Of a stretch of 61,488 bases of DNA, positions 21,003-47,774 are shown one piece after another. The stretch's first letter is position 1. Each line of letters begins with the position of its first letter. Below the pieces are notes generated by a model. It searched no databases, had not been told where the DNA came from, and saw only the letters and a program-made list of their open reading frames with translations. The translations under genes and the position numbers were made by a program. Origin of the DNA: a virus (Duplodnaviria; Heunggongvirae; Uroviricota; Caudoviricetes); the IMG/VR virus record IMGVR_UViG_2908567220_000003; one strand, given 5' to 3'.

Positions 21003-21082
21003 AAAACATCCCTGAAAGTAGGTGCCGGTAATACTGAAAATTTATTCCATTAAATGAGCATTGTCCTCTCTCATCCATTCCG

Positions 21083-22744: not shown

Positions 22745-23084
22745 GCTCGTCCTCTTCCTCTGTTTCCGGTGGATTTCTGCGGCGGCTTACCGGGTCAAAA
22801 CCCAGCAAAGAAGCCATTTTGATCATTATTCTTTCTGCGTCAGCCTTTGCGCTCAGGGCGGGGTTTCTGCTCTCACTGCCCTGACTGTTAACAATGCTGA
22901 ATCCGCGCGTCGCAAGGTCTTCGACGGCTTTGCGGTATATGGAGTAGTTAACGCAATACAGCTCCAGATTGCTCCAGTCGGCGGGGGTAAGGTCTTCCCG
23001 CCCGGAAAGCTGGCGCGATTTTTCCTTCCACTGCCTGACCGCGATTTCATCCAGGTAAGCGGGGGCTTTTGGTGGTCTTGCCAT
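22728..23084 (-). CDS. terS: terminase small subunit, P27 family (satellite copy)
   Basis: ATG at 23084 (MARPPKAPAYLDEIAV) inside track ORF 22728..23225; between HNH and terL. Confidence 0.7.
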   Translation of the reverse strand: MARPPKAPAYLDEIAVRQWKEKSRQLSGREDLTPADWSNLELYCVNYSIYRKAVEDLATRGFSIVNSQGSESRNPALSAKADAERIMIKMASLLGFDPVSRRRNPPETEEEDELDRLA

Positions 23085-23372
23085 GTTCTTTTTTCGCCCA
23101 ATTATTTTCAAAAAAATTCCCGTGCACAAAAATTTGAGGAGGCGGTCGGTGTCCGGCAGGGACGGTTTCGTCCTGAAAACCTCCCCCACCCCCTCTGACA
23201 GCCTCACCAGCGATTGCGAAAACATTCCATGACCTCGCGGTCACGGTCGGTTAATCGCTTCGGTGTGGTGCGTTCTGTGCGCCCTGTCCTGTTGACTTTG
23301 TGCCCTGTCTCCTGTGTCTTCCATAAGTCACGCTGCCTTATCAGTCCACGTATCAGCCTGTTTTGCTCCTGT

Positions 23373-23813
23373 TCAGTCATCATCGCCATACATCCAGTCG
23401 TTACGATGTGCCGCCCGTTCTTCCTGCTCGCGATACATGCCCGCCTTACGGTTCGCTTTCGTGGCTGGATCTTCCCGTGTCGTCTTACGGTTGTGGCACG
23501 TCTGGCACAATGCCTGGTGGTTCCACTCAGGCCAGAAGAGAACATCACCGCCGCCATTGATGGGAATGATGTGATCCACCACAAGAGCTGGCGTATAAAT
23601 CCCCTTAGCCAGACAACGCACGCATAACGGGTTTTTGCTCAGGTACAGGGCGCGGTATTTGTCCCACTGCCGGGAATACCCACGCGCGCGGCGGTGCCCC
23701 CGTCTGGCATCCTCTGCACGCCATGCAGCCCGCCTGTGCTCTTCACACTTGCCGGACTTCACGCGCTTATTACAGCCCGGCTCAGTGCATCGCCTTAATG
23801 GTTGCCACGGCAT
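23373..23813 (-). CDS. HNH endonuclease (packaging-associated, satellite copy)
   Basis: 146-aa ORF with Cys-rich HNH motifs (CHNRKTT), directly upstream of terS; ATG verified. Confidence 0.8.
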   Translation of the reverse strand: MPWQPLRRCTEPGCNKRVKSGKCEEHRRAAWRAEDARRGHRRARGYSRQWDKYRALYLSKNPLCVRCLAKGIYTPALVVDHIIPINGGGDVLFWPEWNHQALCQTCHNRKTTREDPATKANRKAGMYREQEERAAHRNDWMYGDDD

Positions 23814-24112
23814 CAGTACACCCCCACATCACGATAAACCGACCAGAGCGCAGAAATAGCCATAGGCAGTTCAGACTGTTCCACAGGTGAAACCGCTTCC
23901 CTGTTCTCGTACAGGAAAGCGATGTACATCAGGCAACCAACACGTATTGCCGGGGTAAATTCCAGCCCGTCTTCAAAACGTTTCCCGATATGCTTCTGGC
24001 AGGCTTCCAGCGCCGCATCGGTATACATTTTCAGAAGTTCGCCTTCTCCGGAAAAGTCATCAAGGCGAAGATGTGCCCTGACTTCATCAGGTGTAATTTT
24101 GTCTTCACTCAT
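23813..24112 (-). CDS. gp6-like head-tail connector protein (satellite copy)
   Basis: ATG at 24112 (MSEDKITPDEVRAHLRLDD) with AGGTGA RBS inside track ORF 23813..24199. Confidence 0.55.
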   Translation of the reverse strand: MSEDKITPDEVRAHLRLDDFSGEGELLKMYTDAALEACQKHIGKRFEDGLEFTPAIRVGCLMYIAFLYENREAVSPVEQSELPMAISALWSVYRDVGVY

Positions 24113-25319
24113 CTTTTTCACCTTTAATTTCCACAGTCTGCTTCCATGCCTGGCTGAACTCGTCGCCACCTTCACGCGGCGGCATTCCCTCACGCTCACG
24201 GGCTTCGTTCGGATTCATGATCCCGTTCTTAATCCCTTTCTCATACGTGGCGTAACGTTCGGTAGGGGTGGCGCGCAGTAAATCGGCTGAATCAAACTCA
24301 ACCAGATAACGGGTACCAGGTACGGGAGAAGCCACCAGCAAAGCGGCCTTGATTTGCTGTTCGAAGTTCGCCAGCCACGGACGCATTGTCATAGTCAGAA
24401 ACGCGCGGCTTGCCTCACTGAAATTGCTGTAGGTGCTGTTGCTGTATTCCTGAAGAAAAATCGGCGACACGTTGAACATACGGGCAATGTCTTCAATGGA
24501 GAAGCGACGGGAGGCCAGCCATTCAGCATCCTGGTTACTCATTCCCAGTTGCTTGTAATCCATGCCCCCTTCAAGGATTGGCGTTTTTCCGGCATTTTTC
24601 GCCCCCTTGTAGCGTTCCAGTGCGTCTAATGCCTGTTTACCTTTCACGCCGTCCAGCCATTCGCCTGACGTGATAATCCCTGCCGCCATCATGCCATCTT
24701 TCATAATGCTGGCTCCGTGGCGCTGTTGAGCAAGGCCAAGCCCCAGCGCCTCACGGCAAATCGTGACAGGGGAGCGCCCCAGAAAGCCATCATCCGAGGC
24801 ATAGCGGAGATGCAGAACTTCTTCCTGTAAATACGTGCGCACCGTTCCTGTACAGGGTTCGGTGATGGTATAGCGGTATTTGTGTGCGCCTGTGCGTTCC
24901 GGTACAACACACCCCGGCGCATAAGGATGAAGTGATTTTGGCTGCCCGTCCTGCCCCCACTCAATAACCGCATAGGCGTTACCGTTCAGCAGACAGTGAC
25001 GCATCATTGTGCGTTTAAACTGGTAAGGTGTCTGGCACGAATTAGGCTGCTCATTCAGCAGAATATCTACCGGATGACTGTCCAGCCATTCCCGCGCCTC
25101 CCTGCCCTTGTCATTACGTACCAGATACAGATAACACGGCATCGTGGCCACCGCCTCAGCGATGACAGAAACCGCGTTCATCACAGCAGGCAATGATTCA
25201 GCCGTCCCGGCAGAAACATATTCTCCGGATCCGGTATTCGGTACGCCGGACAGCGCCAGAAAATCATCAATGGACAGGTTACGTTGCTCGCTTTTTTTAC
25301 GACTAAAAGGCCACCACAT
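24105..25319 (-). CDS. portal protein, HK97 family (satellite copy)
   Basis: track ORF 24105..25409; ATG at 25319 just after protease stop. Confidence 0.85.
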   Translation of the reverse strand: MWWPFSRKKSEQRNLSIDDFLALSGVPNTGSGEYVSAGTAESLPAVMNAVSVIAEAVATMPCYLYLVRNDKGREAREWLDSHPVDILLNEQPNSCQTPYQFKRTMMRHCLLNGNAYAVIEWGQDGQPKSLHPYAPGCVVPERTGAHKYRYTITEPCTGTVRTYLQEEVLHLRYASDDGFLGRSPVTICREALGLGLAQQRHGASIMKDGMMAAGIITSGEWLDGVKGKQALDALERYKGAKNAGKTPILEGGMDYKQLGMSNQDAEWLASRRFSIEDIARMFNVSPIFLQEYSNSTYSNFSEASRAFLTMTMRPWLANFEQQIKAALLVASPVPGTRYLVEFDSADLLRATPTERYATYEKGIKNGIMNPNEAREREGMPPREGGDEFSQAWKQTVEIKGEKDE

Positions 25320-25320
25320 A

Positions 25321-25881
25321 TCACAACCCCGCCAGTTCAGCCCAGCGATGACGATTATTTCCTGCCGGGCGTAATTCAGGGTGCTGTGCAAACAACGAAC
25401 GGTGGGCAATCTCCACGCCAGATTCTGGATAAGCAGGCATCGACGTTATTGTGATTTCTCGGAGTTCAGCGGCGGTTACGGTACGCAAATACGGTTTTTG
25501 CGCGATATTCCATTCTTCGCATAATGCGCGAAAGCCAAAGCTCATTCCTGTAATGTCGCCACGCGACACCAGCGTGAGCACATCTTTTCCAAGCTGGGTA
25601 TCAGGCGGTGTCAGTTCAAAACGTAGCCCGGTGTTGTCCCCAGTCAGTACCAGAGTGCCGGATTTGGTGCGCCCCAGCAGTTGGGTATAGTCATGCTCAT
25701 ACAGGCAGCGCACATCATTACCCGCCGCCAGATAGTCAGCAAAAGCCCCCGGCGTGAACTGTTCGCGGAATTCGTCCCAGATAATTTCTGAAAGGCTGTT
25801 CCAGCGAACGGCATACCCCACCAGCTTTTTATTGCTGGCGGTCAGTTCAGATGTGCGGATTTCAAAATCGGTGTTTTTCAT
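25321..25881 (-). CDS. prohead protease, HK97 family (satellite copy)
   Basis: 186-aa ORF between MCP and portal; ATG verified. Confidence 0.85.
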   Translation of the reverse strand: MKNTDFEIRTSELTASNKKLVGYAVRWNSLSEIIWDEFREQFTPGAFADYLAAGNDVRCLYEHDYTQLLGRTKSGTLVLTGDNTGLRFELTPPDTQLGKDVLTLVSRGDITGMSFGFRALCEEWNIAQKPYLRTVTAAELREITITSMPAYPESGVEIAHRSLFAQHPELRPAGNNRHRWAELAGL

Positions 25882-25935
25882 CGGTGTACTCCATAAAGCT
25901 GAAAAAGGAGGCCGCAGCCTCCTCCTTACTCATGA

Positions 25936-27105
25936 CTAGCCAGCTTTCATTTCCAGAATTTTGATGGCGTTTGAATCCACCACACCACCGCCCAGATATT
26001 TATCCGTGTGGACCTTGTAGAATCCGGGTTCAGTAATGTTGTCCGGTCGGGTGCGAATCCCTGTTACATGATCAACGATGAAATAACCACGACTGAAATC
26101 GCCAACCGCTAGCGGTGCTTTTCCTGCGCCGATGTCCGGCATGGACTCCAGGCAGAAAACAGGACGACCAAGCAACATATCCGGCGCACCTTCTTTAAGG
26201 CTGTCGCGCCAGATATAATCGCCATTCTCATTTTTCAGCTTCTGTAGTGTCCCTGCCGTGCCCGAGTTCATCACCCAGACGGCATTTTTGCGGTATTTCG
26301 CTTTCAGCTTGTAGAGAATGTCGATCAGTTCGTCCGCTGTAATGGCGGTTCCACTTGCCGCTACCACTTTTTCAATGGTGCCAAAAGCGCGGGTTTTGTC
26401 ACTGGTCGCCGCACGGGTGTAAGCCATGAAGCCTTTCGGCTTGCCGTTACCGTCGCCATTAACAAAATCATCCTCTTCGGTGCTGGCGAACGTGTCGGCA
26501 ATTTCGGAGGATAACCAGCCCAGAATATCCACCTCTGAAAAATCCAGGATTTCCTGCGTGGTTTTCGGGTAGGCGTAGATCGGATTCAGCTTGATGGTTA
26601 CACGTTCAATTTTCGGGGTGTTGGTTTCACTACGTGCGCTGCCTTCTGTGCCTCGTCCTACAGTTGCGCCGCCAGTGGAAACCAGTTTCTGAAACTCATT
26701 TGATTTTGCGGTCTTCACGGTCGCGATCACGCGCATAACACTGTCATCCTGTAGCTGGCGCATGACTTCGCGATCAAGCTCAGGAATTACGGTATATCCG
26801 CCATCCCTGCCGCTGTCAGTGCTGGTGGTCAGTGATCGCACATCTCCGGTTACGATGTAGTTACGCAATTCATCAGATGATAATTTCTGGATGCCCGTTC
26901 CTGGCTTGCTGCGTTCTTCATCAGCCACAGACTCGAGGCGGGAAATTTCTGTGTCGAGGGAATCGGCTTTTGCACGCAGTTCATCAAACTGTTTGCCCTC
27001 GTCATCGTTCAGGCTGCGGTTTTCACTGTCGGCTTTTTCCAGCAGGGATCGCATCTGGTTTTTCAGGGCGGTTTTTTGCTGGCGGAGTTCGATTAATTTC
27101 TTCAT
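25936..27105 (-). CDS. major capsid protein, HK97 family (satellite copy)
   Basis: 389-aa ORF with coiled-coil delta domain; ATG verified; paralog of 16633..17850. Confidence 0.85.
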   Translation of the reverse strand: MKKLIELRQQKTALKNQMRSLLEKADSENRSLNDDEGKQFDELRAKADSLDTEISRLESVADEERSKPGTGIQKLSSDELRNYIVTGDVRSLTTSTDSGRDGGYTVIPELDREVMRQLQDDSVMRVIATVKTAKSNEFQKLVSTGGATVGRGTEGSARSETNTPKIERVTIKLNPIYAYPKTTQEILDFSEVDILGWLSSEIADTFASTEEDDFVNGDGNGKPKGFMAYTRAATSDKTRAFGTIEKVVAASGTAITADELIDILYKLKAKYRKNAVWVMNSGTAGTLQKLKNENGDYIWRDSLKEGAPDMLLGRPVFCLESMPDIGAGKAPLAVGDFSRGYFIVDHVTGIRTRPDNITEPGFYKVHTDKYLGGGVVDSNAIKILEMKAG

Positions 27106-27391
27106 GAAGGTTTTCTCGTATTGGTTAAGATTCAGGACGTGAAACCAACACGGAGGGAGCGCCGCCCGACACTCTCGGCATCTCGCAGATCAACCCGGCA
27201 TCGCGCAGGGGGTCAGGCGGCATTGTGGCGGCTCACGTCTGAGTGCCACACGCCAACATATACATAAAAATCAGTATGTAAACACCTGTCAGTAAGGCCG
27301 AACAACCACGAAAAAACACGAACAAATAATTTACAAAAGAAGTAAACCATGGCCTATTATTGCTACCTCTGACTACAACAAAGGACGCATC

Positions 27392-27898
27392 ATGAATTTA
27401 AGCGCAATGGTATACCCTGATACTTTCATAATTAATGGCGAATCATTTAAAGGTAAAAGAAACGCAAAAGAAAACAAGGTATTAATTCCATATACAAATG
27501 AACCGGAAGTAACTATTGGTCAACACATTATCCAGTGTGTCGGTAAAAACGAGATAAATCTAAAAATTATAGATATGAAGTTGCTTCCCAATGGAACCCT
27601 CAGACAGGGAACCAACCATCCAAATATGTTGACGCTCTATATTGAAAATATCACGGGAAATGAACATATGACGCCACCTAAAAGTAATACATTTAACATT
27701 GGTTCAATTAGTGGTAATCAAGTGCAGATAGGTGAGCATAACCATATGCTGGTAAACATCAGCATCACTGAACTGGTTGAAAAAGTCTCTAAATCGGGGG
27801 ATGTACAAGCCAAATCAGTATTAAAGCAGTTACTGGAAAACAGTACCGTTGCCAGCATTGTTGGGGCTGGCGCAAGTGCCTTAATAGGCTTACTGTAA
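27392..27898 (+). CDS. hypothetical protein with C-terminal hydrophobic tail (satellite accessory gene)
   Basis: 168-aa ORF, ATG with AAAGGA RBS, AT-rich, opposite strand to the rest of the element. Confidence 0.5.
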   Translation: MNLSAMVYPDTFIINGESFKGKRNAKENKVLIPYTNEPEVTIGQHIIQCVGKNEINLKIIDMKLLPNGTLRQGTNHPNMLTLYIENITGNEHMTPPKSNTFNIGSISGNQVQIGEHNHMLVNISITELVEKVSKSGDVQAKSVLKQLLENSTVASIVGAGASALIGLL

Positions 27899-27904
27899 AA
27901 AAAT

Positions 27905-27924
27905 GGCCTGGATTTTACCAGGCC
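27905..27924. terminator. bidirectional Rho-independent terminator between convergent genes
   Basis: stem GGCCTGG / CCAGGCC with 6-nt loop, flanked by A7 upstream and T-rich downstream. Confidence 0.6.
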
Positions 27925-27933
27925 TTTATCATT

Positions 27934-28182
27934 TTACCGTTTCACGGGATCCCGCATTCTGCTTCTTAGTTTCCACAGGTATTCGATCATCGCTTCCACC
28001 TGCTCACGGTTGGTTGCGAAAATTTCCCCGGTCAGTGAGCTGCGCAGAAAATCATGATGATCCACAACAAACAACGCATCGGAAGAAAGCAGACGGCGAT
28101 ATTTTTTTGCTGTCGTGGTTTCCAGATCATCAAAACCATGAAACTTTTTATGTTGCTGAACTTCTTCAAATGTCACAGGCAT
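27934..28182 (-). CDS. hypothetical protein
   Basis: ATG at 28182 with AGGAGG RBS inside track ORF 27934..28221. Confidence 0.5.
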   Translation of the reverse strand: MPVTFEEVQQHKKFHGFDDLETTTAKKYRRLLSSDALFVVDHHDFLRSSLTGEIFATNREQVEAMIEYLWKLRSRMRDPVKR

Positions 28183-28227
28183 GTTTCCTCCTGCTACCAC
28201 GATACCAGAAACAGTTAACAACCGTTA

Positions 28228-28512
28228 TCAATTATCCCCTTTTTTTTTCGGGTAGTTCCTGAACATCTCACCGCCAGGTTTCTGTAAGCCCATCCCGGTA
28301 TGTGTGCGGTTTATGGCCTCTTTCAGTATTCCGAAATTATCCGGTATGACTGGTTGGCGCGCTGCCTTACGGATACATTCCGCGCGACGCTTTGCCACCT
28401 GTTCGCGCTCCTTGTCAGTGCTCACCAGCCACATAACATCAGCCCAACGTGCCGCCGCTCTCCGGTACAGCCCTTTAGCCTCCAGTTCTTCCGCTTTGCT
28501 GTCTTTAATCAT
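28228..28512 (-). CDS. PerC-family transcriptional activator-like protein
   Basis: ATG at 28512 (MIKDSKAEELEAKGLYRRAAARW); assignment from remembered PerC N-terminal motif. Confidence 0.5.
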   Translation of the reverse strand: MIKDSKAEELEAKGLYRRAAARWADVMWLVSTDKEREQVAKRRAECIRKAARQPVIPDNFGILKEAINRTHTGMGLQKPGGEMFRNYPKKKGDN

Positions 28513-28527
28513 GCTGTACCTCACTGC

Positions 28528-28953
28528 TTAAAACGGTATCCCGTCCCCGTACGGATCATCGTGCTGGCCTGTCTGTTGTTTTGCCCTGTTCAGTGCGTCA
28601 GTAGCCTGGCCCTGCTGGCCTTTTTTGCCGCCCGGTCGCGCCGTTCGCGCACTGATTACGCTGTCTGCGATGACCTGCCAGCCCTGCCGCATTTCGCCGT
28701 TCTGGCCTGTCCACTGGCTTACCTGCATGTTACCCGCCACACTCACCAGTTCGCCTTTCTGGTGTTTTGCCAGTGCATCGGCCTGTCTGCCAAACGCCAG
28801 GACGGATAACCACATCGTCGCCGTTCCGTCATCTGCCTGGCTGCACGGCAGGGGAACCGCCATACTCGCCATAGCCATTTGTGTCCCCTTGCTGGTGGTC
28901 TTTAACTGCGGGTCAGCCACCAGCCGCCCGTAAGCCGCTATCTGTGCTGTCAT
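28528..28953 (-). CDS. ssb: single-stranded DNA-binding protein (SSB-like OB fold with C-terminal DIPF tip)
   Basis: 141-aa ORF ending GDGIPF, Gly/Gln-rich linker; ATG verified. Confidence 0.65.
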   Translation of the reverse strand: MTAQIAAYGRLVADPQLKTTSKGTQMAMASMAVPLPCSQADDGTATMWLSVLAFGRQADALAKHQKGELVSVAGNMQVSQWTGQNGEMRQGWQVIADSVISARTARPGGKKGQQGQATDALNRAKQQTGQHDDPYGDGIPF

Positions 28954-29017
28954 GCTGTCTGTTCTCCGGTTTTAACGTTGATTGTTACGCTTGTTTACAC
29001 CCTTACGGTGAAATCCT

Positions 29018-29140
29018 GCGGGTTATAATCGCACTTTTGCGGGTTATAACTGCCGTTTTGCGGGTTACGTGCGGGTTACTGATTTCCTTTTTATTCATAC
29101 AGTTAATGCACTTATACACAGGATAACCCGCATAACCCGC
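29018..29140. repeat. iteron cluster 2 (candidate replication origin): four direct GCGGGTTA(T/C) repeats, AT-rich spacer, two inverted copies
   Basis: direct copies at 29018, 29039, 29060, 29071; AT-rich 29081..29120; inverted ATAACCCGC at 29123 and 29132; downstream of primase/helicase gene. Confidence 0.7.
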
Positions 29141-29163
29141 AACTTTTCACCTCACACAGGGGG

Positions 29164-31284
29164 TTAATCTTCTGCCTCAGGCTGGAACATCAGCACGTAA
29201 AAAACATGCTGCTTCCCCCCAATTTTGCCGAGCGCCTTTTTCTTGTAACGGCGATCGTTACCCGCTTCCAGCATTCCGGCAGCACTCAACGCGCGGGCAA
29301 AGTGAGACGGATTAAATCCCTGTGCTATCTCACCCTCAAATACATGCGGGAACGTGTAAAAACGGAACTCGTCATCTTCGTTTCTGATACTCCCCTTTCT
29401 GTATCCGGCAAGCTCTTTAATCGGTAAATCACGCTCGTCGGTGTTGGGCCACGGAAGGTATCTGCTGAATCCGAACGACGCTAAAAAAGCCTCTGCCTGT
29501 TCAACCATCTGTTTAAACTCCCTGTTACCCGTGCCGAACTCCTTCACCCAGGCATTAAAATTATGCTGAATGGCATCGCGGCACGCCTGAACATCCCAAC
29601 CAGTAATATGGACGGAAAGCACCAGCGCCGACTCCAGCATGGCGAATCGTTCCCCCACACGGTGAACCTGTTCGCCGTAACTCTCCGGTATCAGGTTGCG
29701 CCACCGTTCACGGCATGCCCTTACCGTATCCTTTGCCTCCTGCTGGTGGTCTGCCAGCCATTTAACCCATTCACGCCCCGCCGCCCCGTGATTTTCTGTC
29801 CAGGCATCCTTTAACGCGTCTGCGTGTGCCTTTCCGGTGCTGTATTCGTGAAACTGCGTGGCTTTTTCCATTGGCACGTTAAGCAGGCGGACAAGCTGCC
29901 CCGCCTTGACTTTTATCCCCTCCGTTTTGAGGAATGTCTCAACGTCCATTTCTCCGGTGCTGATTGCCACCGTGCGCCAGTGTTTGATCTCCCTGTTGCC
30001 GCCGTCCTTCGCCCCCTGTAATTTCCCCGAACCGTTAAACAGCGTATAAGCCGACGTGGACACTTCCCGCGCGTTTCCGGCCTGACCTATTTCATCCAGG
30101 GGTAATAGCCCGTCATTGTGCGCCTCTGCCTCGTTGGCGATGCCTAACGCTGTACCGTACCAGGTCAGCCGTTGCGCGTCCGGCTCTCCCCATAAACTGG
30201 ATGCGATGTTCTGTGTGGTGGTTTTCCCTGCCGATGACTGTTCGAAAAGATGTACCCCGAAGCCGTCAGCACCCACCAGCCCGATTAATGGTGCGGATAA
30301 CGATACCGCCACACCCAGCATCATGGACGGATTACCACCAGCCAGCCGCGCAACGGTATCGCGCCAGCCCTCCGCCGTTCCTGCCACAGAATAGCCATTA
30401 ACGGCAGCCGTTTTTCCGGTAAACAGGATCGGTTTTTCAGACTCACCAATGACTGAACCGTCCGGCATGATGTACGCACCAAAATGCCAGCCCGTTGTTG
30501 TGCTTAACTGCCATTCCTCATGGTTTCCGCTTAACTGCATCCAGTCAGCCAGGATAGCCCTGTATTTGCCGTTAGTTGTTACGTTAAGGCCGTGGTCTTT
30601 CAGCAACCGCCAGCCGTCACGGTCGCCAATGCCCCCGCACGGAACCGCCATTGTGATGACTTCATGGTTTGCGGGTTTCTTCCAGCGCATCACGCGGTAA
30701 TGCTCTTTGCCGATTGTCCCCGTTCCCAGTAGTTCAAGCGGGGAACATAACCACGTCTCAGGCCGGATAATTTCGCCTGACTGCTTGTCAACTTTGGGCG
30801 TTACCCAGAAAACACCATCGGCGCGACTTTCAACGCGGGGCTTTAATTCATCATCGCCCTGGCTTTCTGTGATTTTTTTCTTTAAGGGCAACACCAGACT
30901 TTCCCCGCGCTCGTATTCGTCTTTCAGCCGGGCAAGCTGCGGTGTCCAGTCCTCCAGTAGTTCACCGTTCTCGTCACAAAAACTGGCTTCCTTAACACCA
31001 GCCACTGCCAGCAGGGTTTCAATCTGTAACGCCTGTCTGTCATCCAGCTTTCCGGCACGTCTGACCATGGCGCGTAACCGTCCATCATCCACAATACGCA
31101 GGTTTTCCAGATTACCCAGGTCACGCCGCCCGAGATAAACAGGTGGTATTTTGTCGCCGCGCTTTCTGGCTTCTCCGCCCTGCATGTAATGCTCTGCGTG
31201 GCTGTATGCGTCATCCCCCGCAAAAATCACTGCATCCTCGCCTTTATCTTTCGGTAACAGTTTTACGTTCGGTGCCAGTTTCAT
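29164..31284 (-). CDS. replication primase/helicase (DUF927-type P-loop NTPase)
   Basis: 706-aa ORF with Walker A (SSAGKTTT); ATG verified; adjacent to iterons. Confidence 0.65.
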   Translation of the reverse strand: MKLAPNVKLLPKDKGEDAVIFAGDDAYSHAEHYMQGGEARKRGDKIPPVYLGRRDLGNLENLRIVDDGRLRAMVRRAGKLDDRQALQIETLLAVAGVKEASFCDENGELLEDWTPQLARLKDEYERGESLVLPLKKKITESQGDDELKPRVESRADGVFWVTPKVDKQSGEIIRPETWLCSPLELLGTGTIGKEHYRVMRWKKPANHEVITMAVPCGGIGDRDGWRLLKDHGLNVTTNGKYRAILADWMQLSGNHEEWQLSTTTGWHFGAYIMPDGSVIGESEKPILFTGKTAAVNGYSVAGTAEGWRDTVARLAGGNPSMMLGVAVSLSAPLIGLVGADGFGVHLFEQSSAGKTTTQNIASSLWGEPDAQRLTWYGTALGIANEAEAHNDGLLPLDEIGQAGNAREVSTSAYTLFNGSGKLQGAKDGGNREIKHWRTVAISTGEMDVETFLKTEGIKVKAGQLVRLLNVPMEKATQFHEYSTGKAHADALKDAWTENHGAAGREWVKWLADHQQEAKDTVRACRERWRNLIPESYGEQVHRVGERFAMLESALVLSVHITGWDVQACRDAIQHNFNAWVKEFGTGNREFKQMVEQAEAFLASFGFSRYLPWPNTDERDLPIKELAGYRKGSIRNEDDEFRFYTFPHVFEGEIAQGFNPSHFARALSAAGMLEAGNDRRYKKKALGKIGGKQHVFYVLMFQPEAED

Positions 31285-31580
31285 TTTTTACCTCTGGATG
31301 CGCTGAGCATGCTTTTTATTTTCTTAATATTTTCCCGTGCTTTTTCCCTGCTGGTGGGCTTACCGCGTGTTGCGTTCTGTACCAGAGAAAAATCACGCCG
31401 GAACTGATAAACAGGCATCACGCAGTCATAGCCGTACCCATCACGGCGGTAAGTAACGCACCGTCCCGCCACGCTTTTAATCGTTACCGTGCCGCCGTAG
31501 TTATCCCGGAAAATATCGCCGGGGCGGATTTCAGGCCGAGCGGGGCCGCTGGCAGTAAAGCCAGAAATTTTCTGTTTCAT
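31281..31580 (-). CDS. hypothetical protein
   Basis: 99-aa ORF, ATG verified, stop overlaps primase start. Confidence 0.4.
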   Translation of the reverse strand: MKQKISGFTASGPARPEIRPGDIFRDNYGGTVTIKSVAGRCVTYRRDGYGYDCVMPVYQFRRDFSLVQNATRGKPTSREKARENIKKIKSMLSASRGKK

Positions 31581-31585
31581 GGTTT

Positions 31586-31819
31586 TTATTTCCCGGTGTG
31601 TTGCTCTTTATATCTGTCGTGCAAGATGTCTATTTCTTGCAGTTCATTTATTACAGGCTCAAGAAGCGTTATTAATGCTGTTGCAATATTGCTGTTGCGT
31701 TTATCTCTTTCATTATCGCCAAGCGTTTCAAGCCATAAGCGCAATATTTCAAGCATGTTTTCACTGTAAGCAAGTGCGCTGTATGCATGATCTACTGTGT
31801 CATTGTAAATATCATGCAT
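31586..31819 (-). CDS. hypothetical protein
   Basis: 77-aa ORF, ATG verified. Confidence 0.4.
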   Translation of the reverse strand: MHDIYNDTVDHAYSALAYSENMLEILRLWLETLGDNERDKRNSNIATALITLLEPVINELQEIDILHDRYKEQHTGK

Positions 31820-31822
31820 GGC

Positions 31823-32023
31823 TCACCCCCCCTGAATATTCGCGTTAATCATTCCGACACGCTCTGCGAGTTCCTGTAATGATTCCCTTGTTGCGACAAT
31901 TGCTTCATCTGGCAGGTGGTAATTACTCACCACGCGACCTTTATCCACATTGACTAGCAACTGCCCGGTGAATTTCTCACGAAACTGGATGCGGTTAAGG
32001 TCGGTAAGTGACAGGTTAATCAT
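31823..32023 (-). CDS. hypothetical protein
   Basis: 66-aa ORF, ATG verified. Confidence 0.4.
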   Translation of the reverse strand: MINLSLTDLNRIQFREKFTGQLLVNVDKGRVVSNYHLPDEAIVATRESLQELAERVGMINANIQGG

Positions 32024-32219
32024 GGTGTACCCCCTGACGAATACGGGCGGCGAATACCATCACGCAGCCAGCCGGGGATTGCTGGCGTGCTTCCTGTTCG
32101 CTGGTGGCCTCAATGGTAATCACGCGCGGTTGTGCCGTGCTCAGGGCGATAAAACGCCAGATATATTTATTCAGGTTGTGCGAGTCCCGCCCTTGCGGGT
32201 GTGTGGTATGATTTCTCAT
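32016..32219 (-). CDS. hypothetical protein, first gene of leftward operon from the divergent control region
   Basis: ATG at 32219 with GAGGT RBS; only the 3-prime 67 codons of track ORF 32016..33089 are plausible. Confidence 0.4.
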   Translation of the reverse strand: MRNHTTHPQGRDSHNLNKYIWRFIALSTAQPRVITIEATSEQEARQQSPAGCVMVFAARIRQGVHHD

Positions 32220-32316
32220 AGCTACCTCGATACTCTTGCTATCGTTGGTGGTTAGACGCCCTGCATGTGTTGCGAGCACTGCGGGGCGTTGCTTAATTTG
32301 AGTGACAAAACTCAAA

Positions 32317-32395
32317 CTGTGCGCACAGATTAAAATCATGTGTGCGCACATGTCAATACTTAACATCTCATTTTTTTTGCTGTATTGTGTGCGCC
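32317..32395. promoter_or_regulatory. divergent promoter/operator region with TGTGCGCACA palindromes
   Basis: perfect 10-bp palindromes at 32319..32328 and 32341..32350 (23 bp centre to centre) plus TGTGTGCGCC half-site near 32386. Confidence 0.6.
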
Positions 32396-32424
32396 CATAA
32401 AGTCCATTTAAGTGAGGTGCATCA

Positions 32425-32622
32425 ATGTCTAGCGGTAACACAAACAACAAATCAGCAAAGAAAAATATTCGATTCCCACATGAGCTTATAGATGGGATTG
32501 ATGCCAGCGTTGAACAAGAAAAATTAACTAATCCTAGTGCTAATTTTTCCGCATGGGTCTTAGATGCCTGTGGACGCAAATTAAAATATGAACAGCGCCG
32601 GAAGGCCAAAGAATCAGAATAA
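32425..32622 (+). CDS. ribbon-helix-helix-type DNA-binding regulator (candidate satellite master repressor)
   Basis: 65-aa ORF, ATG with GTGAGGTG RBS; NIRFPHELIDGIDASVEQ pattern fits beta-strand plus helix of RHH fold. Confidence 0.45.
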   Translation: MSSGNTNNKSAKKNIRFPHELIDGIDASVEQEKLTNPSANFSAWVLDACGRKLKYEQRRKAKESE

Positions 32623-32664
32623 TCACTATCAGCGCCGTGGTGTGAGTAACTACGGCGCATTGCT

Positions 32665-32853
32665 ATGCAGGACAACACAATGACCGATAAAGAATTGACC
32701 AAAACATTATCACCGACACGGAAAAGACGGCGCAGAAAGATAGAGCATGAATCAGAAAGATTCGCACCTTGTTCGTTTGCTCTTGAGAAATTCCTTAAAG
32801 AGCGCAGGAAAAAGCTCTCGTTGCAAACCTTGGAACGAACCAAATCTGACTGA
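32665..32853 (+). CDS. hypothetical small basic protein
   Basis: 62-aa ORF, ATG verified; followed by GC hairpin and T-run. Confidence 0.35.
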   Translation: MQDNTMTDKELTKTLSPTRKRRRRKIEHESERFAPCSFALEKFLKERRKKLSLQTLERTKSD

Positions 32854-33233
32854 TCACATTGCCCACCAGCCGCAAATGTGGCATTGTTGGTGATGCTTTT
32901 GTTTTCCCTTGTTCCCACTGGCGACCCTTTTGCGGTCGCCTTTGTTTTGCCTGTTATCCGGCAATAGTGGCGCTTCGTCACCTGTCTGATATAATTCCAC
33001 AGCTTATATTCATTTTTTGCGCAGTAGGTTAATTGTTCGCAAGGGCGCTCCGGCAACGGGGCGCTTTTTGTTTTTACCCACCAGCACAATAAAAATCTTC
33101 ATTTTCCATTTTTGTAAAATTTCATGCTTTCCGGACGACTGGTCATATGTCATTTTTTAGCAGAAGATTTTGCCTTGCTGGTGGGTAGCTTCCCGGTCAA
33201 CACGATGTACCGTATAATCAACACCGCGTGTGG

Positions 33234-33812
33234 TTACTGAATACGCTCACCAAAGTAAAACTCAGGCTGGTATTCACGTATCAGCCTTTTTTCTTCTTCC
33301 TCCAGCTCACGCTTTTTGCGCTTACATGCCTGTAGCTCCCTCCCCTTCTCACTGGCACTTATCTGGTATTGCTCTTTGCGGCGGGAAAAATCCTGTAATG
33401 CGCCCCACGGGATACCATAAGCCCCCGTTTTTCTGATACCCGGTATCACATTTCTGAATACCCAGTTACTGAAACGATGAGCAAATGTGCCAGGCGTCGT
33501 TGCTTTGCGGCTGCGGGCTATTAGTTTGTAGAAACCTGATTCGGAGATAATGCTCATATTCTGATTTCCTCCGGGGGTGTAAGTTAAATTTACTCCCTTT
33601 TCGTCATCATCAAGCATCTGCAACGCCGTACGCGAATTGGTCAGTTCCAGCGCAGCACAAACATCCTTTGCAACAAACCACGGATCGCCGTTTAGATACA
33701 CCACACGAACATCCACGCCATCAAAGCGCAGAACGACCAGATCACGAATATCACAGAATTTTTTCACATGACGTGCGTCACCCTTGCCCGTCACGGCAAT
33801 ATTTTTATTCAT
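33234..33812 (-). CDS. Bro-N domain protein (antirepressor-like)
   Basis: 192-aa ORF with N-terminal Bro-N-like region and C-terminal charged coiled coil; ATG verified. Confidence 0.65.
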   Translation of the reverse strand: MNKNIAVTGKGDARHVKKFCDIRDLVVLRFDGVDVRVVYLNGDPWFVAKDVCAALELTNSRTALQMLDDDEKGVNLTYTPGGNQNMSIISESGFYKLIARSRKATTPGTFAHRFSNWVFRNVIPGIRKTGAYGIPWGALQDFSRRKEQYQISASEKGRELQACKRKKRELEEEEKRLIREYQPEFYFGERIQ

Positions 33813-33869
33813 TGCTTTTTACCTCACATACAAAAAACCCCGCATTGCGTGGTGCGGGGTTGTCGGTAA

Positions 33870-34148
33870 TTACTTATTGGCGTTTTTGTATGGGCTGTTT
33901 ACTTCCTTTACTCCTGGCGGATGCATAACCCACCAGAGCACATCAGAGAGCAACCAGGAAACAGACACTTTCCCTAAATGAGCACGAGCAGGAAATGCTC
34001 CCTCCTGTTCAAGTACCCAACGTCTGCTTCTTGAAAGCCCGGTACGATTGGCACACTCATGTTCGCGTATACGGCGATCATACGGTTCGCCATGATCTTT
34101 CAGAATCTGAATGCGTTCTTCGGGTGTAGGATAAATAAATTTTTGCAT
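33870..34148 (-). CDS. alpA: AlpA-family transcriptional regulator
   Basis: ATG at 34148 with AGGTGA RBS; motif GLSRSRRWVLEQEGAFPARAHLGKVSVSWLLSDV; downstream of integrase. Confidence 0.7.
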   Translation of the reverse strand: MQKFIYPTPEERIQILKDHGEPYDRRIREHECANRTGLSRSRRWVLEQEGAFPARAHLGKVSVSWLLSDVLWWVMHPPGVKEVNSPYKNANK

Positions 34149-34379
34149 AAAAATATCACCTATAAAAAAACCCGCCAAAAGACGGGTTGATTATATCTCA
34201 TTTAATTTAGCTCAGGGTTTCCATTCACCTTTTACCCATTCCAGCACCTCAGATAAGCGCCAGACTTTTGTTTGTGGGCCAATACATATTTTTCGTAACC
34301 GTCTCATTTAAACCGTCTTTCGCCTCCCTTTCCTGTTTCCGATACTAATGTCCATTTTCGCAGTAAAGGGACATTTAAG

Positions 34380-35030
34380 ATGAATGCACGAAAAGCGGTA
34401 CTGGCAGACAATCCGGAATTGATCCTGCGTGTGCTACAGCTGAGATTTGACGAGTCACTGTCGTACCCGCGCATTTCTGCGCAGACCGGTGTCAGCAAAA
34501 CCGCCATTTTTTCTCTGGTGAGGCGATTTCACCAGGTATTCACTGACTGGCCTCTTTCCGGTGAATATTCCTGCGGGCAACTGGCCCGGGCTCTTTTCCC
34601 GGGGCGATACCCTTCAGCCCCGACCGTGACTCAGCCTGTGAAAGCAGAGAAACCCCGCCGGAACCGATTTTCACCGGAGTTTAAATGGAGACTGGTTCAG
34701 CAAACTCTTTTACCCGGTGCCTGTGTCGCACAAATAGCTCGAGAGAATGGAATTAACGATAACCTGCTCTTTAACTGGCGGCATCTCTGGCGTAACGGTG
34801 GCCTGCAACCGCCCGGCGAACATGAAACATCGCTACTTCCCGTGACGTTAACTCCGGAGCCGGATAATAAAATCCCGGCACCAGTGCAGATACCTGAACA
34901 GATAAATACACTGCCAGACAGTCTGTGCTGCGAGCTGGTTCTGCCGGCCGGAACTCTCAGGCTGAAAGGTGAACTGACACCGGCGTTATTACAGACACTT
35001 ATCCGCGAAATGAAAGGGAGCAGCCACTGA
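34380..35030 (+). CDS. IS66-family accessory protein (orf1, HTH)
   Basis: 216-aa ORF, first of three in the IS. Confidence 0.7.
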   Translation: MNARKAVLADNPELILRVLQLRFDESLSYPRISAQTGVSKTAIFSLVRRFHQVFTDWPLSGEYSCGQLARALFPGRYPSAPTVTQPVKAEKPRRNRFSPEFKWRLVQQTLLPGACVAQIARENGINDNLLFNWRHLWRNGGLQPPGEHETSLLPVTLTPEPDNKIPAPVQIPEQINTLPDSLCCELVLPAGTLRLKGELTPALLQTLIREMKGSSH

Positions 35031-35377
35031 TGATATCTCTCCCTGCCGGTTCGCGTATCTGGCTGGTTGCCGGTATCACCGATATGCGAAATGGCTTTAA
35101 CGGCCTGGCCTCAAAAGTTCAGAACGTCCTGAAGGATGACCCGTTCTCCGGGCATCTGTTCATCTTCCGCGGACGCCGGGGTGACCAGATAAAAGTGCTG
35201 TGGGCTGACAGTGACGGACTGTGCCTCTTCACCAAACGCCTGGAGCGGGGCCGCTTCGTCTGGCCGGTCACCCGCGATGGAAAGGTTCACCTTACTCCGG
35301 CTCAGTTGTCCATGCTTCTCGAAGGCATCGACTGGAAGCACCCGAAACGAACGGAACGCGCTGGCATCCGCATATAA
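35030..35377 (+). CDS. tnpB: IS66-family TnpB (orf2)
   Basis: 115-aa ORF, ATGA overlap with orf1, typical IS66 orf2 size and sequence. Confidence 0.8.
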   Translation: MISLPAGSRIWLVAGITDMRNGFNGLASKVQNVLKDDPFSGHLFIFRGRRGDQIKVLWADSDGLCLFTKRLERGRFVWPVTRDGKVHLTPAQLSMLLEGIDWKHPKRTERAGIRI

Positions 35378-35396
35378 CCCGTTGTAAAGTGAGGAT

Positions 35397-36968
35397 ATGG
35401 ACACCTCACTTGCTCATGAGAATGCCCGCCTGCGGGCACTGTTGCAGACGCAACAGGACACCATCCGCCAGATGGCGAAATACAACCGCCTGCTCTCACA
35501 GCGGGTGGCGGCTTATGCTTCCGAAATCAACCGGCTGAAGGCGCTGGTTGCGAAACTGCAGCGCATGCAGTTCGGTAAAAGCTCAGAAAAACTTCGCGCT
35601 AAAACCGAACGGCAGATACAGGAAGCCCAGGAGCGAATCAGCGCACTTCAGGAAGAAATGGCGGAAACGCTGGATGAGCAATATGACCCGGTACTGCCAT
35701 CCGCCCTGCGCCAGTCTTCAGCCCGTAAGCCGTTACCGGCCTCACTTCCCCGTGAAACCCGGGTCATCCGGCCGGAAGAGGAATGCTGCCCGGCCTGTGG
35801 TGGTGACCTCAGTCCTCTGGGGTGTGATGTGTCAGAGCAACTGGAGCTTATCAGCAGCGCTTTTAAGGTTATCGAAACACAACGTCCGAAACTGGCCTGT
35901 TGCCGGTGCGACCATATCGTGCAGGCACCAGTACCTTCAAAACCCATTGCACGCAGTTATGCCGGAGCGGGGCTTCTGGCTCATATCGTCACCGGGAAGT
36001 ATGCAGACCATCTGCCGTTATACCGCCAGTCAGAAATATACCTTCGTCAGGGCGTGGAACTGAGCCGCGCCACGCTGGGGCGCTGGACCGGTGCCGTTGC
36101 TGAACTGCTGGAGCCGCTGTATGACGTGCTGCGCCAGTATGTGCTGATGCCCGGTAAAGTCCATGCGGATGATATCCCCGTTCCGGTCCAGGAGCCGGGC
36201 AGTGGTAAAACAAGAACTGCCCGGCTGTGGGTCTATGTCCGTGATGACCGTAACGCCGGTTCACAGATGCCCCCGGCGGTCTGGTTCGCGTACAGCCCGG
36301 ACCGGAAAGGTATCCATCCACAGAATCACCTGGCCGGTTACAGCGGTGTGCTTCAGGCAGATGCTTACGGTGGTTACCGGGCGTTATACGAATCCGGCAG
36401 AATAACGGAAGCCGCGTGTATGGCCCATGCCCGGAGAAAAATCCACGATGTGCATGCAAGAGTGCCAACCGACATCACCACGGAAGCCCTGCAGCGTATC
36501 GGTGAACTGTATGTCATCGAGGCAGAAGTCCGGGGATGTTCAGCAGAACAGCGTCTGGCAGCAAGAAAAGCCAGAGCGGCTCCACTGATGCAGTCACTGT
36601 ATGACTGGATACAGGAACAGATGAAAACACTGTCGCGTCACTCGGATACGGCAAAAGCGTTCGCATACCTGCTGAAACAGTGGGAGGCCCTGAACGTGTA
36701 CTGCAGTAATGGCTGGGTGGAAATCGACAACAACATCGCAGAGAACGCCTTACGGGGAGTGGCCGTAGGCCGGAAAAACTGGCTCTTCGCGGGTTCCGAC
36801 AGCGGTGGCGAACATGCGGCGGTGTTGTACTCGCTGATCGGCACATGCCGTCTGAACAATGTGGAACCAGAAAAATGGCTGCGTTACGTCATTGAGCATA
36901 TCCAGGATTGGCCGGCAAACCGGGTACGCGATCTGTTGCCCTGGAAAGTTGATCTGACCTCTCAGTAA
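35397..36968 (+). CDS. tnpC: IS66-family transposase (orf3)
   Basis: 523-aa ORF with leucine-zipper-like N-terminus and Cys-rich motif. Confidence 0.8.
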
Positions 36969-37122
36969 ATATCAATACGGTTCTGGCGAGCCGCTTACTA
37001 TTTTTCGTGGAAATTTTCCTTCCTTTTCAAGTAACGATCTGTGTCTCCTGCCAAGAGCGGTTAACCATGCACATTCATCTTCCTTAATCATCCTGTCGAT
37101 TGTTTCATCATTTTCAAGTTCT

Positions 37123-38346
37123 TCACGCGTAACTATTTGAATCATTACTGTCACCACTAATTTGCTTATTCAGATAGTCGTACCACCAGTTCATAGCTTC
37201 TTTTTTTCTGTCCATATACTGGCTTCTGTTATAAACCCCGGCAACACCGCCTAATGTGTGCCCAAGCAACTGTTCAACCACATTATGTTCAAAACCATGA
37301 TCACTTAGTTTTGTGGCAAACACTCTTCGCATATCATGCGCCGTCCATTTCTCCGAGTGTTTCATCCTTTTCCATGTCTTACCGATAGTTACGCTTGCCG
37401 TACACTGACGCATATCAAACCCAATCACATTTTCTTTGTTACCTGTTATTTTTTTTAACGTAACTAACCAGTTAAACATGCCATCAGGAATCGGTCTGAT
37501 TATTTCCCTGCCATTTTTGCTATGATCAGCGGGAACGCGCCATAATTTCTTATCAAAATCCCACTCTACCCAGGACGACAGTAATACTTCTGACAGTCGA
37601 CAACCAAAAACTACCAGGAAACGTAAAATAATTCGGTTTTCATATGATAATTCGTGATTGTCATAATCAGTATTAATACTTCGCCATAAATCTCTGATTT
37701 CATCATCTGTTAAAACCCTGCTTCTTCGCGCAGACTTTTTTCCCACATCACAGACCTCAAGATCATCAATTTCATGACTAATCGCGTATTTTCTTACCCT
37801 ACAAAATTTAAGCGCCTGTTTTGATATACGCAACAAAGCTCCGGCCTGTACAGGTGCTACTTTTTTTATTTTGTCAAAACACTTAATCCACATAGATATA
37901 GAGCAATCACTAAGTGGTACATGACCAATCACCGGATAAATATGTTTACCAAAGCACTGCCTGATATGTTCTGCTCCCCTACGCTTATCCATTGCATAAT
38001 TATCAAGCCAGTATTCAAGTGCCTCACGAACGGTAACAGGTTGCAAGGTGGCTTCCCGTTCAATTTTTATCTGAATCCGTGGATCTCTGCCCTCCGCAAG
38101 CCAAGTTCGACACTGATCGCGCATCTCTCTCGCTGATTTGAGACTCAGATCAGGATATTTTCCAAGTGTCAGCCAGATGGGCGCGGTTTCCCTTCCCGCC
38201 AGTCTGTAAAAGAAAACAAAACTAACACATCCGTATTTACTGACCCGTACCGAAAGCCCGTTACCATCAGCGATGGTTTCCTGCCTCTCACTCCTGCGTC
38301 CAAGCAGGGAACGAAGTTTTTTATCGCTCAGTTTGTTTAGCGCCAT
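37123..38346 (-). CDS. int: tyrosine integrase, P4-type (satellite)
   Basis: ATG at 38346 (MALNKLSDKKLRS) inside track ORF 37123..39546; C-terminal R..H..GH..Y catalytic pattern; adjacent to right junction. Confidence 0.85.
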   Translation of the reverse strand: MALNKLSDKKLRSLLGRRSERQETIADGNGLSVRVSKYGCVSFVFFYRLAGRETAPIWLTLGKYPDLSLKSAREMRDQCRTWLAEGRDPRIQIKIEREATLQPVTVREALEYWLDNYAMDKRRGAEHIRQCFGKHIYPVIGHVPLSDCSISMWIKCFDKIKKVAPVQAGALLRISKQALKFCRVRKYAISHEIDDLEVCDVGKKSARRSRVLTDDEIRDLWRSINTDYDNHELSYENRIILRFLVVFGCRLSEVLLSSWVEWDFDKKLWRVPADHSKNGREIIRPIPDGMFNWLVTLKKITGNKENVIGFDMRQCTASVTIGKTWKRMKHSEKWTAHDMRRVFATKLSDHGFEHNVVEQLLGHTLGGVAGVYNRSQYMDRKKEAMNWWYDYLNKQISGDSNDSNSYA

Positions 38347-38518
38347 GTGATTTATAACCCGTTTTTGCAATACACAGTGCAATACACAAATGATGAAAAC
38401 AGCCAGAACCTTCCAGAAAAAACAAAAACGACGAACAAGAAAAAAATCTTTTTCTTTCATTTGGTTACTAAAAAAATCAGGACAGGTCGCACTGTTGTTA
38501 CGGCGTGATGTTACTTTC

Positions 38519-39546
38519 TTGGTAAAAAAATTCACCCGCGCAGAGACCTGCTCCTTCGCTTTTTTCGCCAGACGACGCAGATCATCCCAGCGTTTACAGA
38601 TGCCCAGGCCAGGATTCGCTTTCTGCCAGACCGTTTCATCAAACGGATCATCTCCCTCATCGAGCGTGTAAATGATCGCAAAGTAGGAGTCGTCTTTTAC
38701 CGCGCCCTCCACGTCGCTGTTATAGCCTCGCAATACCTTAATGGCGTAATCGCGCTGCTCGTAGCAAATCCCTTCCTTGTTAAAGCCAGCCGTGGTGATG
38801 CCAAATAACAGAGACTGCAGACGGGCACCGGTTGCCGTTTCCAGAACGTCCCACACGTCACGGGTTTTATGAGCATGCAGCTCATCAATAATGGCACAGT
38901 GGATGTTCAGACCGTCCAGGTTGTTTGCATCCGAGGAAAGCGGTTCAAATTTTGATGCGCTCTGCTCCTGGTAAATCGCCAGCTTGTTGAAGTCAAACAA
39001 CCGCCCGAGTGTCGACCGGGCTTTTCTGACCATATTTTTGGCGTCTTCAAACACAATTCTGGCCTGGTCACGCGTGGTTGCGGCTGAATACACCTCAGCC
39101 CCGCCTTCACCATCTGCCCCCGTCATATACAGACCGATACCCGATGACAGGGTTGATTTTGCGTTTTTACGGGCAACTTCGTTGTATGCTGTCCGGAACC
39201 GGCGCACCATCACCGGGCGTCCACTGCCATCGCTGCGCATGACAACTTCCCCGGTTTCTTCATTCACCAGCGGAATGACAAAACCAAAAATATTAATGAG
39301 GATAAACACATGCCAGTCCATCAACTCAATGGGCTGACCTGCCAGCGCCCCTTTCACATGGGGTACAAATTTGTAGAAATTAAGGATGTGCTGTGCACGA
39401 GGTTCACTGAAATAAATCCCCCGCTCTTCGCCGTACTTCAGATCATCAAGAAAACGCTGGCAGGCCAGACGGACAAATTCGCCAGCAACAATTTCTCCTG
39501 CAACAACACGTTCGGCGTAGCGGATCCCGTCAGCCACTTTTGCCAT
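38519..39546 (-). pseudogene. terL: terminase large subunit, N-terminal (ATPase) fragment of the interrupted prophage terL
   Basis: first ~345 codons of track ORF 37123..39546 align to N-terminal half of TerL 21083..22744 up to the FFTKK motif; ATG overlaps terS stop. Confidence 0.8.
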
Positions 39547-40028
39547 CAGTCTCTCGCTTTTAAAAGCTCTGCCAGCGGATCAACATCATCCGGTCCGGCG
39601 GTATTTACTTTCGCCCGGCTTGCCGGTGACATACCAAACTCTGCAAGCATCGCCCGAATCCGCTTCCAGGCATCAGCCTTCATCGCAGCAGCCGGGTGTG
39701 CCTTGATCAGCACATCGCCATTCTGCGTTTCCGTGCGGTAGGTATAACCCTCAACATCGAGTATTTCGCAGTGATGCCGGTATTCGGTGTAGGCTTCCAC
39801 CAGTAACTCGAGCGCACGTGCATCGAGCTGAGAAATGATCCCTTCCGCATTCAGCTCTTCCGCCATTCGCCTGAACCAGTACTTCCCCTGCGCCCCTAAA
39901 TGTTGCGGAATTTTAGGGAGACATTTTTCATCCTTTTTAGCGGTTTTTTTTGGGTCTTTAACGGGGCGCTTTGAGGGGTTGCCTCGTATCAAATGCAGGC
40001 GTGGCGGGGTTTTCAGGGGTCCTGACAT
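39546..40028 (-). CDS. terS: terminase small subunit, P27 family (prophage copy)
   Basis: 160-aa ORF directly upstream of terL N-fragment; ATG verified. Confidence 0.75.
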   Translation of the reverse strand: MSGPLKTPPRLHLIRGNPSKRPVKDPKKTAKKDEKCLPKIPQHLGAQGKYWFRRMAEELNAEGIISQLDARALELLVEAYTEYRHHCEILDVEGYTYRTETQNGDVLIKAHPAAAMKADAWKRIRAMLAEFGMSPASRAKVNTAGPDDVDPLAELLKARD

Positions 40029-47659: not shown

Positions 47660-47774
47660 GTTACCTCCAGATCCGTTGCTGGAAAGTGCGTAACCGTCTC
47701 ATTTAAACCGTCTTTCGCCTCCCTTTCCTGTTTCCGATACTAATGTCCATTTTCGCAGTAAAGGGACATTTAAG

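Follow-up and report, generated by a model that had tools for sequence, protein, structure and literature searches.

The window analysed here is a stretch of 61,488 nucleotides from a virus of the Caudoviricetes (IMG/VR record IMGVR_UViG_2908567220_000003). Its list of open reading frames (ORFs) contains one minus-strand ORF of 807 aa (37123..39546), which spans the N-terminal fragment of the large terminase gene (terL) of a helper prophage, an attL core, the attachment-site arm of a phage satellite and the integrase gene (int) of that satellite. This 807-codon fusion is probably an unselected by-product of satellite integration, brought about by an A-poor arm and by homopolymer slippage. The fusion itself matters little, i.e., it is a recombination-generated ORF that is mis-handled by gene callers.

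Neither the element nor its ORF fusion is new to the literature. Helper-embedded phage-inducible chromosomal islands (HE-PICIs) have been catalogued by Tommasini, Mageeney and Williams (2023, NAR Genom Bioinform, PMC10111431), and 491 of them were mapped to 14 sites in late genes. The copy of Escherichia coli 042 is listed there as Eco33.15.A_Terminase_1_246 (FN554766.1/2250958-2235714) with the note "reannotate term_int fusion", a second table entry carries the note "reannotate terminase/int fusion", and 14 int/late-gene fusions created by integration had to be split. The fusion was treated by these authors as an annotation problem. A satellite parked inside the terminase gene of its helper, and holding this gene hostage, is of interest, and has been in print since 2023; de Sousa et al. 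2023 cite a report on satellites located in prophages. The catalogue (PMC10111431) contains no analysis of the T-run polymorphism described below, or of where the stop falls with respect to the int ATG.

The two halves of the ORF are recognized by Pfam. TerL_ATPase matches residues 112-268 and TerL_nuclease residues 283-345 (the first 64 of 286 positions only), while Arm-DNA-bind_3 and Phage_integrase match residues 406-492 and 611-777, respectively. No Pfam match is found between the TerL_nuclease part and Arm-DNA-bind_3. These two halves, together with the integration junction, bear out the original prediction, made from the sequence of the window, that an N-fragment of terL and an integrase are combined in one chimeric ORF. 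The stop of the helper terS overlaps the terL start (ATGA), and the terL N-fragment (terL') is annotated by PGAP as a pseudogene missing its C-terminus in all copies fetched. The missing half of terL is found in the ORF 19831..20556, which matches TerL_nuclease positions 64-283.

The interval 38346-38525 has the int ATG as one limit and, at the other, takes in the 7-bp att core up to its outer edge. Its satellite-derived part 5' of the int ATG has a length of 172 nt, i.e., ~57 codons and not the 50 first given; it is free of stops in the terL frame, as had been predicted, and contains three and four stops in the other two frames. Chance had been proposed as a possible cause of this open frame, with a probability of about 10%. 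Chance is retained here as the explanation, but the event is rarer than estimated: the probability of having no stop in the terL frame of the arm is 1.8% for the shuffled stretch, 2.1% for its own composition and 5.4% for the composition of the island. Composition as the full cause of the open frame was considered and rejected: the 93 nt proximal to int are A-poor, yet shuffles give ~2%, so that composition helps and explains the open frame only partly.

The two halves of terL are separated by 17,958 bp, i.e., a satellite of ~15.2 kb plus a 2.7-kb insertion sequence (IS) of the IS66 family. When the flanks are joined in silico, an intact TerL of 585 aa is obtained, and the rebuilt empty site (483 nt) is 100% identical to the uninterrupted terL of strain EC32. 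Among 5426 complete E. coli genomes, the empty terL site is found in 905, and the integrase with its arm in 36, where it always adjoins terL. The idea that the satellite targets its own terL was discarded, this terminase sharing only 32% identity with the helper TerL and differing from it at the target site.

On its sequence, the element is a helper-embedded PICI of site group A:Terminase_1:246, located in the helper prophage terL at codon ~343. Target gene and codon are those of the group, as is the core TTACCAA, and the attL arm shows no nucleotide difference (the core plus 100 nt of arm, compared with the published A_Terminase_1_246 attL entries, block 'ttaccaa'). The int and arm of the 042 copy are identical to those of the window (100% over 621 nt; 0 differences in 1500 nt), from which we infer membership of the HE-PICI integrase clade. 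HE-PICIs carry int, alpA and primase in the orientation of the late gene that they interrupt (PMC10111431); here all three are on the minus strand, as are the helper terS and terL. The terL frame continues in satellite DNA and not in a duplicated terL end, i.e., the target is disrupted without replacement sequence, as in the published group. The zone order (int-alpA, Bro, replication, late) is also the same, and the doubled TGTATTGC motif is present on both arms. The catalogue describes a doubled motif tgTGTATTGCantgTGTATTGCa in two co-oriented copies, ~81 bp upstream and ~132 bp downstream of the attP centre (PMC10111431). In the window, the doubled motif (g)TGTATTGCacTGTGTATTGC is matched only twice in 61 kb, each time on the minus strand (38367..38387, i.e., 20 nt 5' of the int ATG, and 20643-20663), for 0 expected; one ends ~79 nt before the core centre and the other starts ~135 nt after it (134 in the T6 copies, see below). 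These are candidate arm-type sites of the integrase. The window copy differs from the published group by the IS66-family insertion in its alpA-like gene and by a minority T7 allele.

The order of the satellite genes on the minus strand is int, alpA-like, IS, second AlpA, Bro-N, DUF927 primase, SSB, capsid, prohead protease, portal, connector, HNH, TerS and its own TerL. Judged by this content, the element is a phage satellite similar to the capsid-forming PICIs (cf-PICIs; Alqurainy et al., bioRxiv 10.1101/2022.09.08.507074): it has its own head and packaging set from capsid to TerL, no tail or lysis genes, and 15.2 kb without the IS, for 10-18 kb in cf-PICIs. A possible difference is the site: that preprint gives cf-PICIs six attB sites in the chromosome of E. 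coli, whereas the satellite of the window, a putative capsid former, lies inside a prophage gene.

The frame across the junction is set by a T homopolymer of the arm. The terL frame was traced in 14 copies from complete genomes, seven fused and seven with six T (T6). AT7 or GT8 leads to the fusion; T6 leads to a stop of the terL frame (TAA) 5 nt before the int ATG. By span length, the fused class is present in 7/36 complete genomes and the T6 class in 29/36. The seven genomes of fused length were all checked by sequence (AT7, n = 4; GT8, n = 3). In the T6 copies checked, the terL frame is open over 55 codons and ends at the TAA 38352-38354 (7/7); the T6 copy of UMNF18 has a separate frameshift inside terL itself. 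The published E. coli-type attL set (n = 32) contains 23 T6, four T7 and four GT8 copies, and one copy in which an extra T in the first run gives an in-frame TAG; the fused length thus accounts for 8/32, and one of the 23 T6 copies also carries an in-frame TAA. It had been stated beforehand that stops in this interval in other copies would refute the fusion; such stops are the rule, with the TAA in all seven T6 copies checked and 24 of the 32 published copies not of fused length.

The arm contains a second T7 run (38470-38476). The published copy Eco13099 has T8 at this place, which gives an in-frame TAG, and length thus varies in both homopolymers of the arm.

The fused copies belong to a single island lineage, with only 0-4 differences in 1500 nt among them, and the helper terL haplotypes next to them differ by 3-40 per 1000 nt. 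As a side observation, a fused lineage found in helper haplotypes up to 4% apart suggests either that it still moves between helpers or that the helper side recombines.

The start of int is best placed at ATG 38346. The N-terminus MALNKLSDKKL aligns with MAVNKLSDKKL of two Xenorhabdus integrases (66% identical), and this start (407 aa) is the one annotated by PGAP in the seven T6 copies fetched. In fused copies PGAP gives 445 aa from ATG 38460, or 470 aa from a GTG inside terL', in which case int overlaps the terL pseudogene annotation. The 445- and 470-aa extensions are artefacts of the open frame. The same integrase thus receives three N-termini (407, 445 and 470 aa) according to the allele of the T-run.

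The original prediction had noticed that the int ATG lacks an obvious Shine-Dalgarno (SD) sequence, and the best duplex with the anti-SD indeed reaches only -3.7 kcal/mol. This value is not special, since two relatives without frame continuity are equally weak (-4.7 kcal/mol for the capsid-E group and -3.8 for one Xenorhabdus; -12.0 for the other Xenorhabdus). On the minus strand from terL' to int, there is no sigma-70 match of at least 9/12 (best 7/12) and no terminator-like site. A leaderless int mRNA starting from the TATAAA located 5 nt before the ATG was considered and rejected, no -35 element being found at a usable spacing. The satellite is placed where late transcription of the helper could read into int, and on this point the position agrees with what had been predicted; such reading into int is also a published hypothesis for HE-PICIs in general (PMC10111431).

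The following course of events is proposed. (i) The tyrosine integrase would insert the satellite in codon ~343 of terL of a lambdoid prophage, setting the satellite arm and int directly downstream of the terL N-fragment and in the same orientation. (ii) The arm, which consists of non-coding T-tracts and the doubled motif, is A-poor near int and for this last reason happens to be stop-free in the terL frame. (iii) One extra T in a minority lineage makes the terL frame coincide with that of int, hence the 807-codon ORF. (iv) Int would be made from its own ATG 38346, as suggested by the alignment with its relatives and by the annotation of the T6 copies. (v) The int mRNA would most likely derive at least partly from read-through of the helper late operon, which is proposed because no good promoter or terminator was found between terL' and int. 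(vi) Excision would rebuild an intact terL, as it does in silico.

Several observations weigh against an unselected origin. For a single junction, a 57-codon open frame has a chance of 2-5%. Moreover, both common alleles bring terL' ribosomes to the int start, either fused to it or stopping 5 nt upstream, a detail that is new; the joint probability of both paths being open is ~0.3% in segment-wise shuffles, though this test was made after the fact and is uncorrected for the 14 site groups, and it leaves room for selection. Lastly, the fused allele was not quickly lost: it gained a further A-to-T change and adjoins divergent helper terL haplotypes.

The alternative that survives best, although we hold it to be rather improbable, is translational coupling. 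In the T6 arrangement, taken here as ancestral, terL' ribosomes that terminate at the TAA would re-initiate at the SD-less int ATG located 5 nt further on, T7 and GT8 being tolerated derivatives; helper late translation would thereby set the time of Int synthesis and, through it, of excision and terL repair. The 55-codon open frame and constant stop position of the T6 copies, the weak SD, the arm without promoter-like site and the joint figure given above all point in this direction. In addition, late satellite excision has been measured for a related HE-PICI, 11capE, of the capsid E group (PMC10111431). However, this same group also argues against coupling: in capsid E:80, the largest HE-PICI group, the capsid frame stops 132 nt before int (two copies examined). 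Since these copies lack the arrangement with a stop near the ATG, coupling is not required for late excision.

The other site groups lead to the same result. In the published attL sequences, the late-gene frame closes soon after the core, i.e., after 10 nt in A:132, 57 nt in the A:246 group of Arsenophonus, and 49, 57 and 84 nt in portal B:241, B:227 and B:38, respectively; in capsid E:80, too, it closes within this range of 10-84 nt. An integrase scan with one genome per species returned two Xenorhabdus loci only, which are too few for a survey and were used as outgroups; they have the same arm architecture, and their upstream frame ends ~150 nt before int. Late-gene/int frame continuity was thus not found in the other site groups or integrase relatives examined, and, as far as these sequences go, it is peculiar to the E. 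coli A:246 arm. Against coupling also stand the equally weak SDs of relatives without frame continuity, and two published copies of the same group that carry early in-frame stops. With 14 site groups at 2-5% chance each, one open-frame case is not remarkable (one chance case is expected at roughly 15-50%).

Coupling may be compared with known cases of termination-reinitiation. As in these, a long upstream ORF ends in T6 copies 5 nt before an ATG without good SD. The differences are that the upstream ORF is here the truncated gene of another element, joined by recombination, and that the arrangement is not conserved in the related satellites examined. A stronger version, in which the stop-free arm would be a selected device, is slightly less credible again: helper late translation would gate excision and terL repair, and the slippery T-tract would switch between a coupled and a fused, possibly excision-poor, state. 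If functional, the junction would provide a concrete cis-mechanism for late satellite excision, so far explained only by the read-through hypothesis. There is a parallel with regulated gene integrity (term used in PMC10111431), in which precise excision rebuilds an intact gene, here the helper terL (in silico). In the present case, however, the interrupted gene is that of another mobile element, the presumed beneficiary is the satellite, and excision is probably impaired.

It is very unlikely that TerL-N-Int is a functional fusion protein, or that the T-tract is phase-variable and switches between the fusion and a separate Int. The fused allele is admittedly present in complete genomes and published copies alike, and its lineage lasted long enough to acquire GT8 as a further change and occurs in more than one helper terL haplotype. 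Nevertheless, it is a minority allele confined to a single island lineage, and was not found in the other HE-PICI groups examined. The fusion would also place 400 residues, i.e., the TerL fragment and a hydrophobic low-complexity linker without domain, ahead of the N-terminal arm-binding domain. The cataloguing authors took it as an annotation artefact (PMC10111431). The suggestion of a meaningful TerL-N-Int fusion thus finds no support, the frame continuity not being conserved (7/36 and 8/32; none in the other groups or relatives examined).

That the extra T is a homopolymer sequencing or assembly error and the ORF unreal is the least credible reading of all: length errors in homopolymers are common in some long-read assemblies, but this length class recurs in the published set (eight draft genomes) and in independent complete genomes, seven in number and E. 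coli 042 among them; three of these seven carry the derived GT8, which has the same length.

The state of the window copy must be considered separately. The alpA-like gene next to int, which has 222 nt when intact in other copies, is interrupted by an IS; the break was mapped by comparison with 042. We take this IS to belong to the IS66 family from its three-ORF layout. A second copy (47689-50393; 2705 bp, 100% identical) is located in the early region of the helper prophage. AlpA-type proteins act as excisionase or activator of such satellites (PMC10111431). Since the alpA-like gene is disrupted, the satellite is probably locked in place, in which case the helper terL would be permanently split. 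As identical IS copies cut the satellite alpA-like gene and lie in the helper early region, both elements of the composite are probably defective.

Table 1. Features of the helper prophage, of the junction and of the satellite in the window (all coordinates are those of the window).
Feature	Coordinates	Strand	Basis
Small terminase subunit (P27 family), helper prophage	39546..40028	-	Pfam Terminase_4, 89.6 bits; PGAP name in 042
terL N-fragment, helper prophage, codons 1 to ~343, ends in att core	38519..39546	-	Pfam
attL copy of the 7-bp identity block TTACCAA	38519..38525	-	Sequence; same block at attR
Satellite attachment-site arm, 172 nt, non-coding, open in terL frame here	38347..38518	-	Frame analysis; no Pfam domain
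T7 homopolymer setting the frame	38440..38446	-	Alignment and frame tracing of 14 copies; published attL set
TAA ending the terL frame in T6 copies; out of frame in the window	38352..38354	-	Frame tracing
Satellite tyrosine integrase, 407 aa, start ATG 38346	37123..38346	-	Pfam Arm-DNA-bind_3, Phage_integrase
alpA-like helix-turn-helix gene overlapping the int end, IS-truncated	36972..37157	-	Phage_AlpA positions 1-33/51 only
IS66-family insertion	34294..36998	+	ORFs 34380-35030, 35030-35377, 35397-36968
Rest of satellite	20568..34293	-	Pfam; PGAP annotation of 042 copy; repeats
Second AlpA gene	33870-34178	-	Pfam
Bro-N	33234-33812	-	Pfam
DUF927 primase	29164-31284	-	Pfam
Iterons	29017-29141	-	
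SSB	28528-28953	-	
Capsid	25936-27105	-	
Prohead protease	25321-25881	-	
Portal	24105-25409	-	
Connector	23813-24199	-	
HNH	23373-23813	-	
Satellite terS	22728-23225	-	
Satellite's own terL	21083-22744	-	
Iterons	20848-21002	-	
Doubled motif	20643-20663	-	
attR copy of the att core TTACCAA	20561..20567	-	Sequence
terL C-fragment, helper prophage	19831..20560	-	TerL_nuclease positions 64-283/286; PGAP pseudogene missing N-terminus

Some minor observations concern the Xenorhabdus relatives and the repeats of the satellite. In Xenorhabdus bakwenae (locus L010, 2280-2510), the 66%-identical integrase, with the same arm and doubled motif, follows a gene whose product is hydrophobic, membrane-protein-like and not phage-looking. 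This is probably an off-target integration of the kind described in the HE-PICI paper (PMC10111431). The other copy (L011) follows an apparent phage portal gene, and YIKFMFNRV is the tail of the upstream frame at both loci.

Eleven exact copies of TGCGGGTTA are present in the two iteron clusters of the satellite, for 0.47 expected in the whole window. The cluster just 3' of the DUF927 primase gene (29017-29141) is a likely replication origin. The cluster located between the satellite terL stop and attR (20848-21002) may be a second origin, a packaging site or a set of regulator sites.

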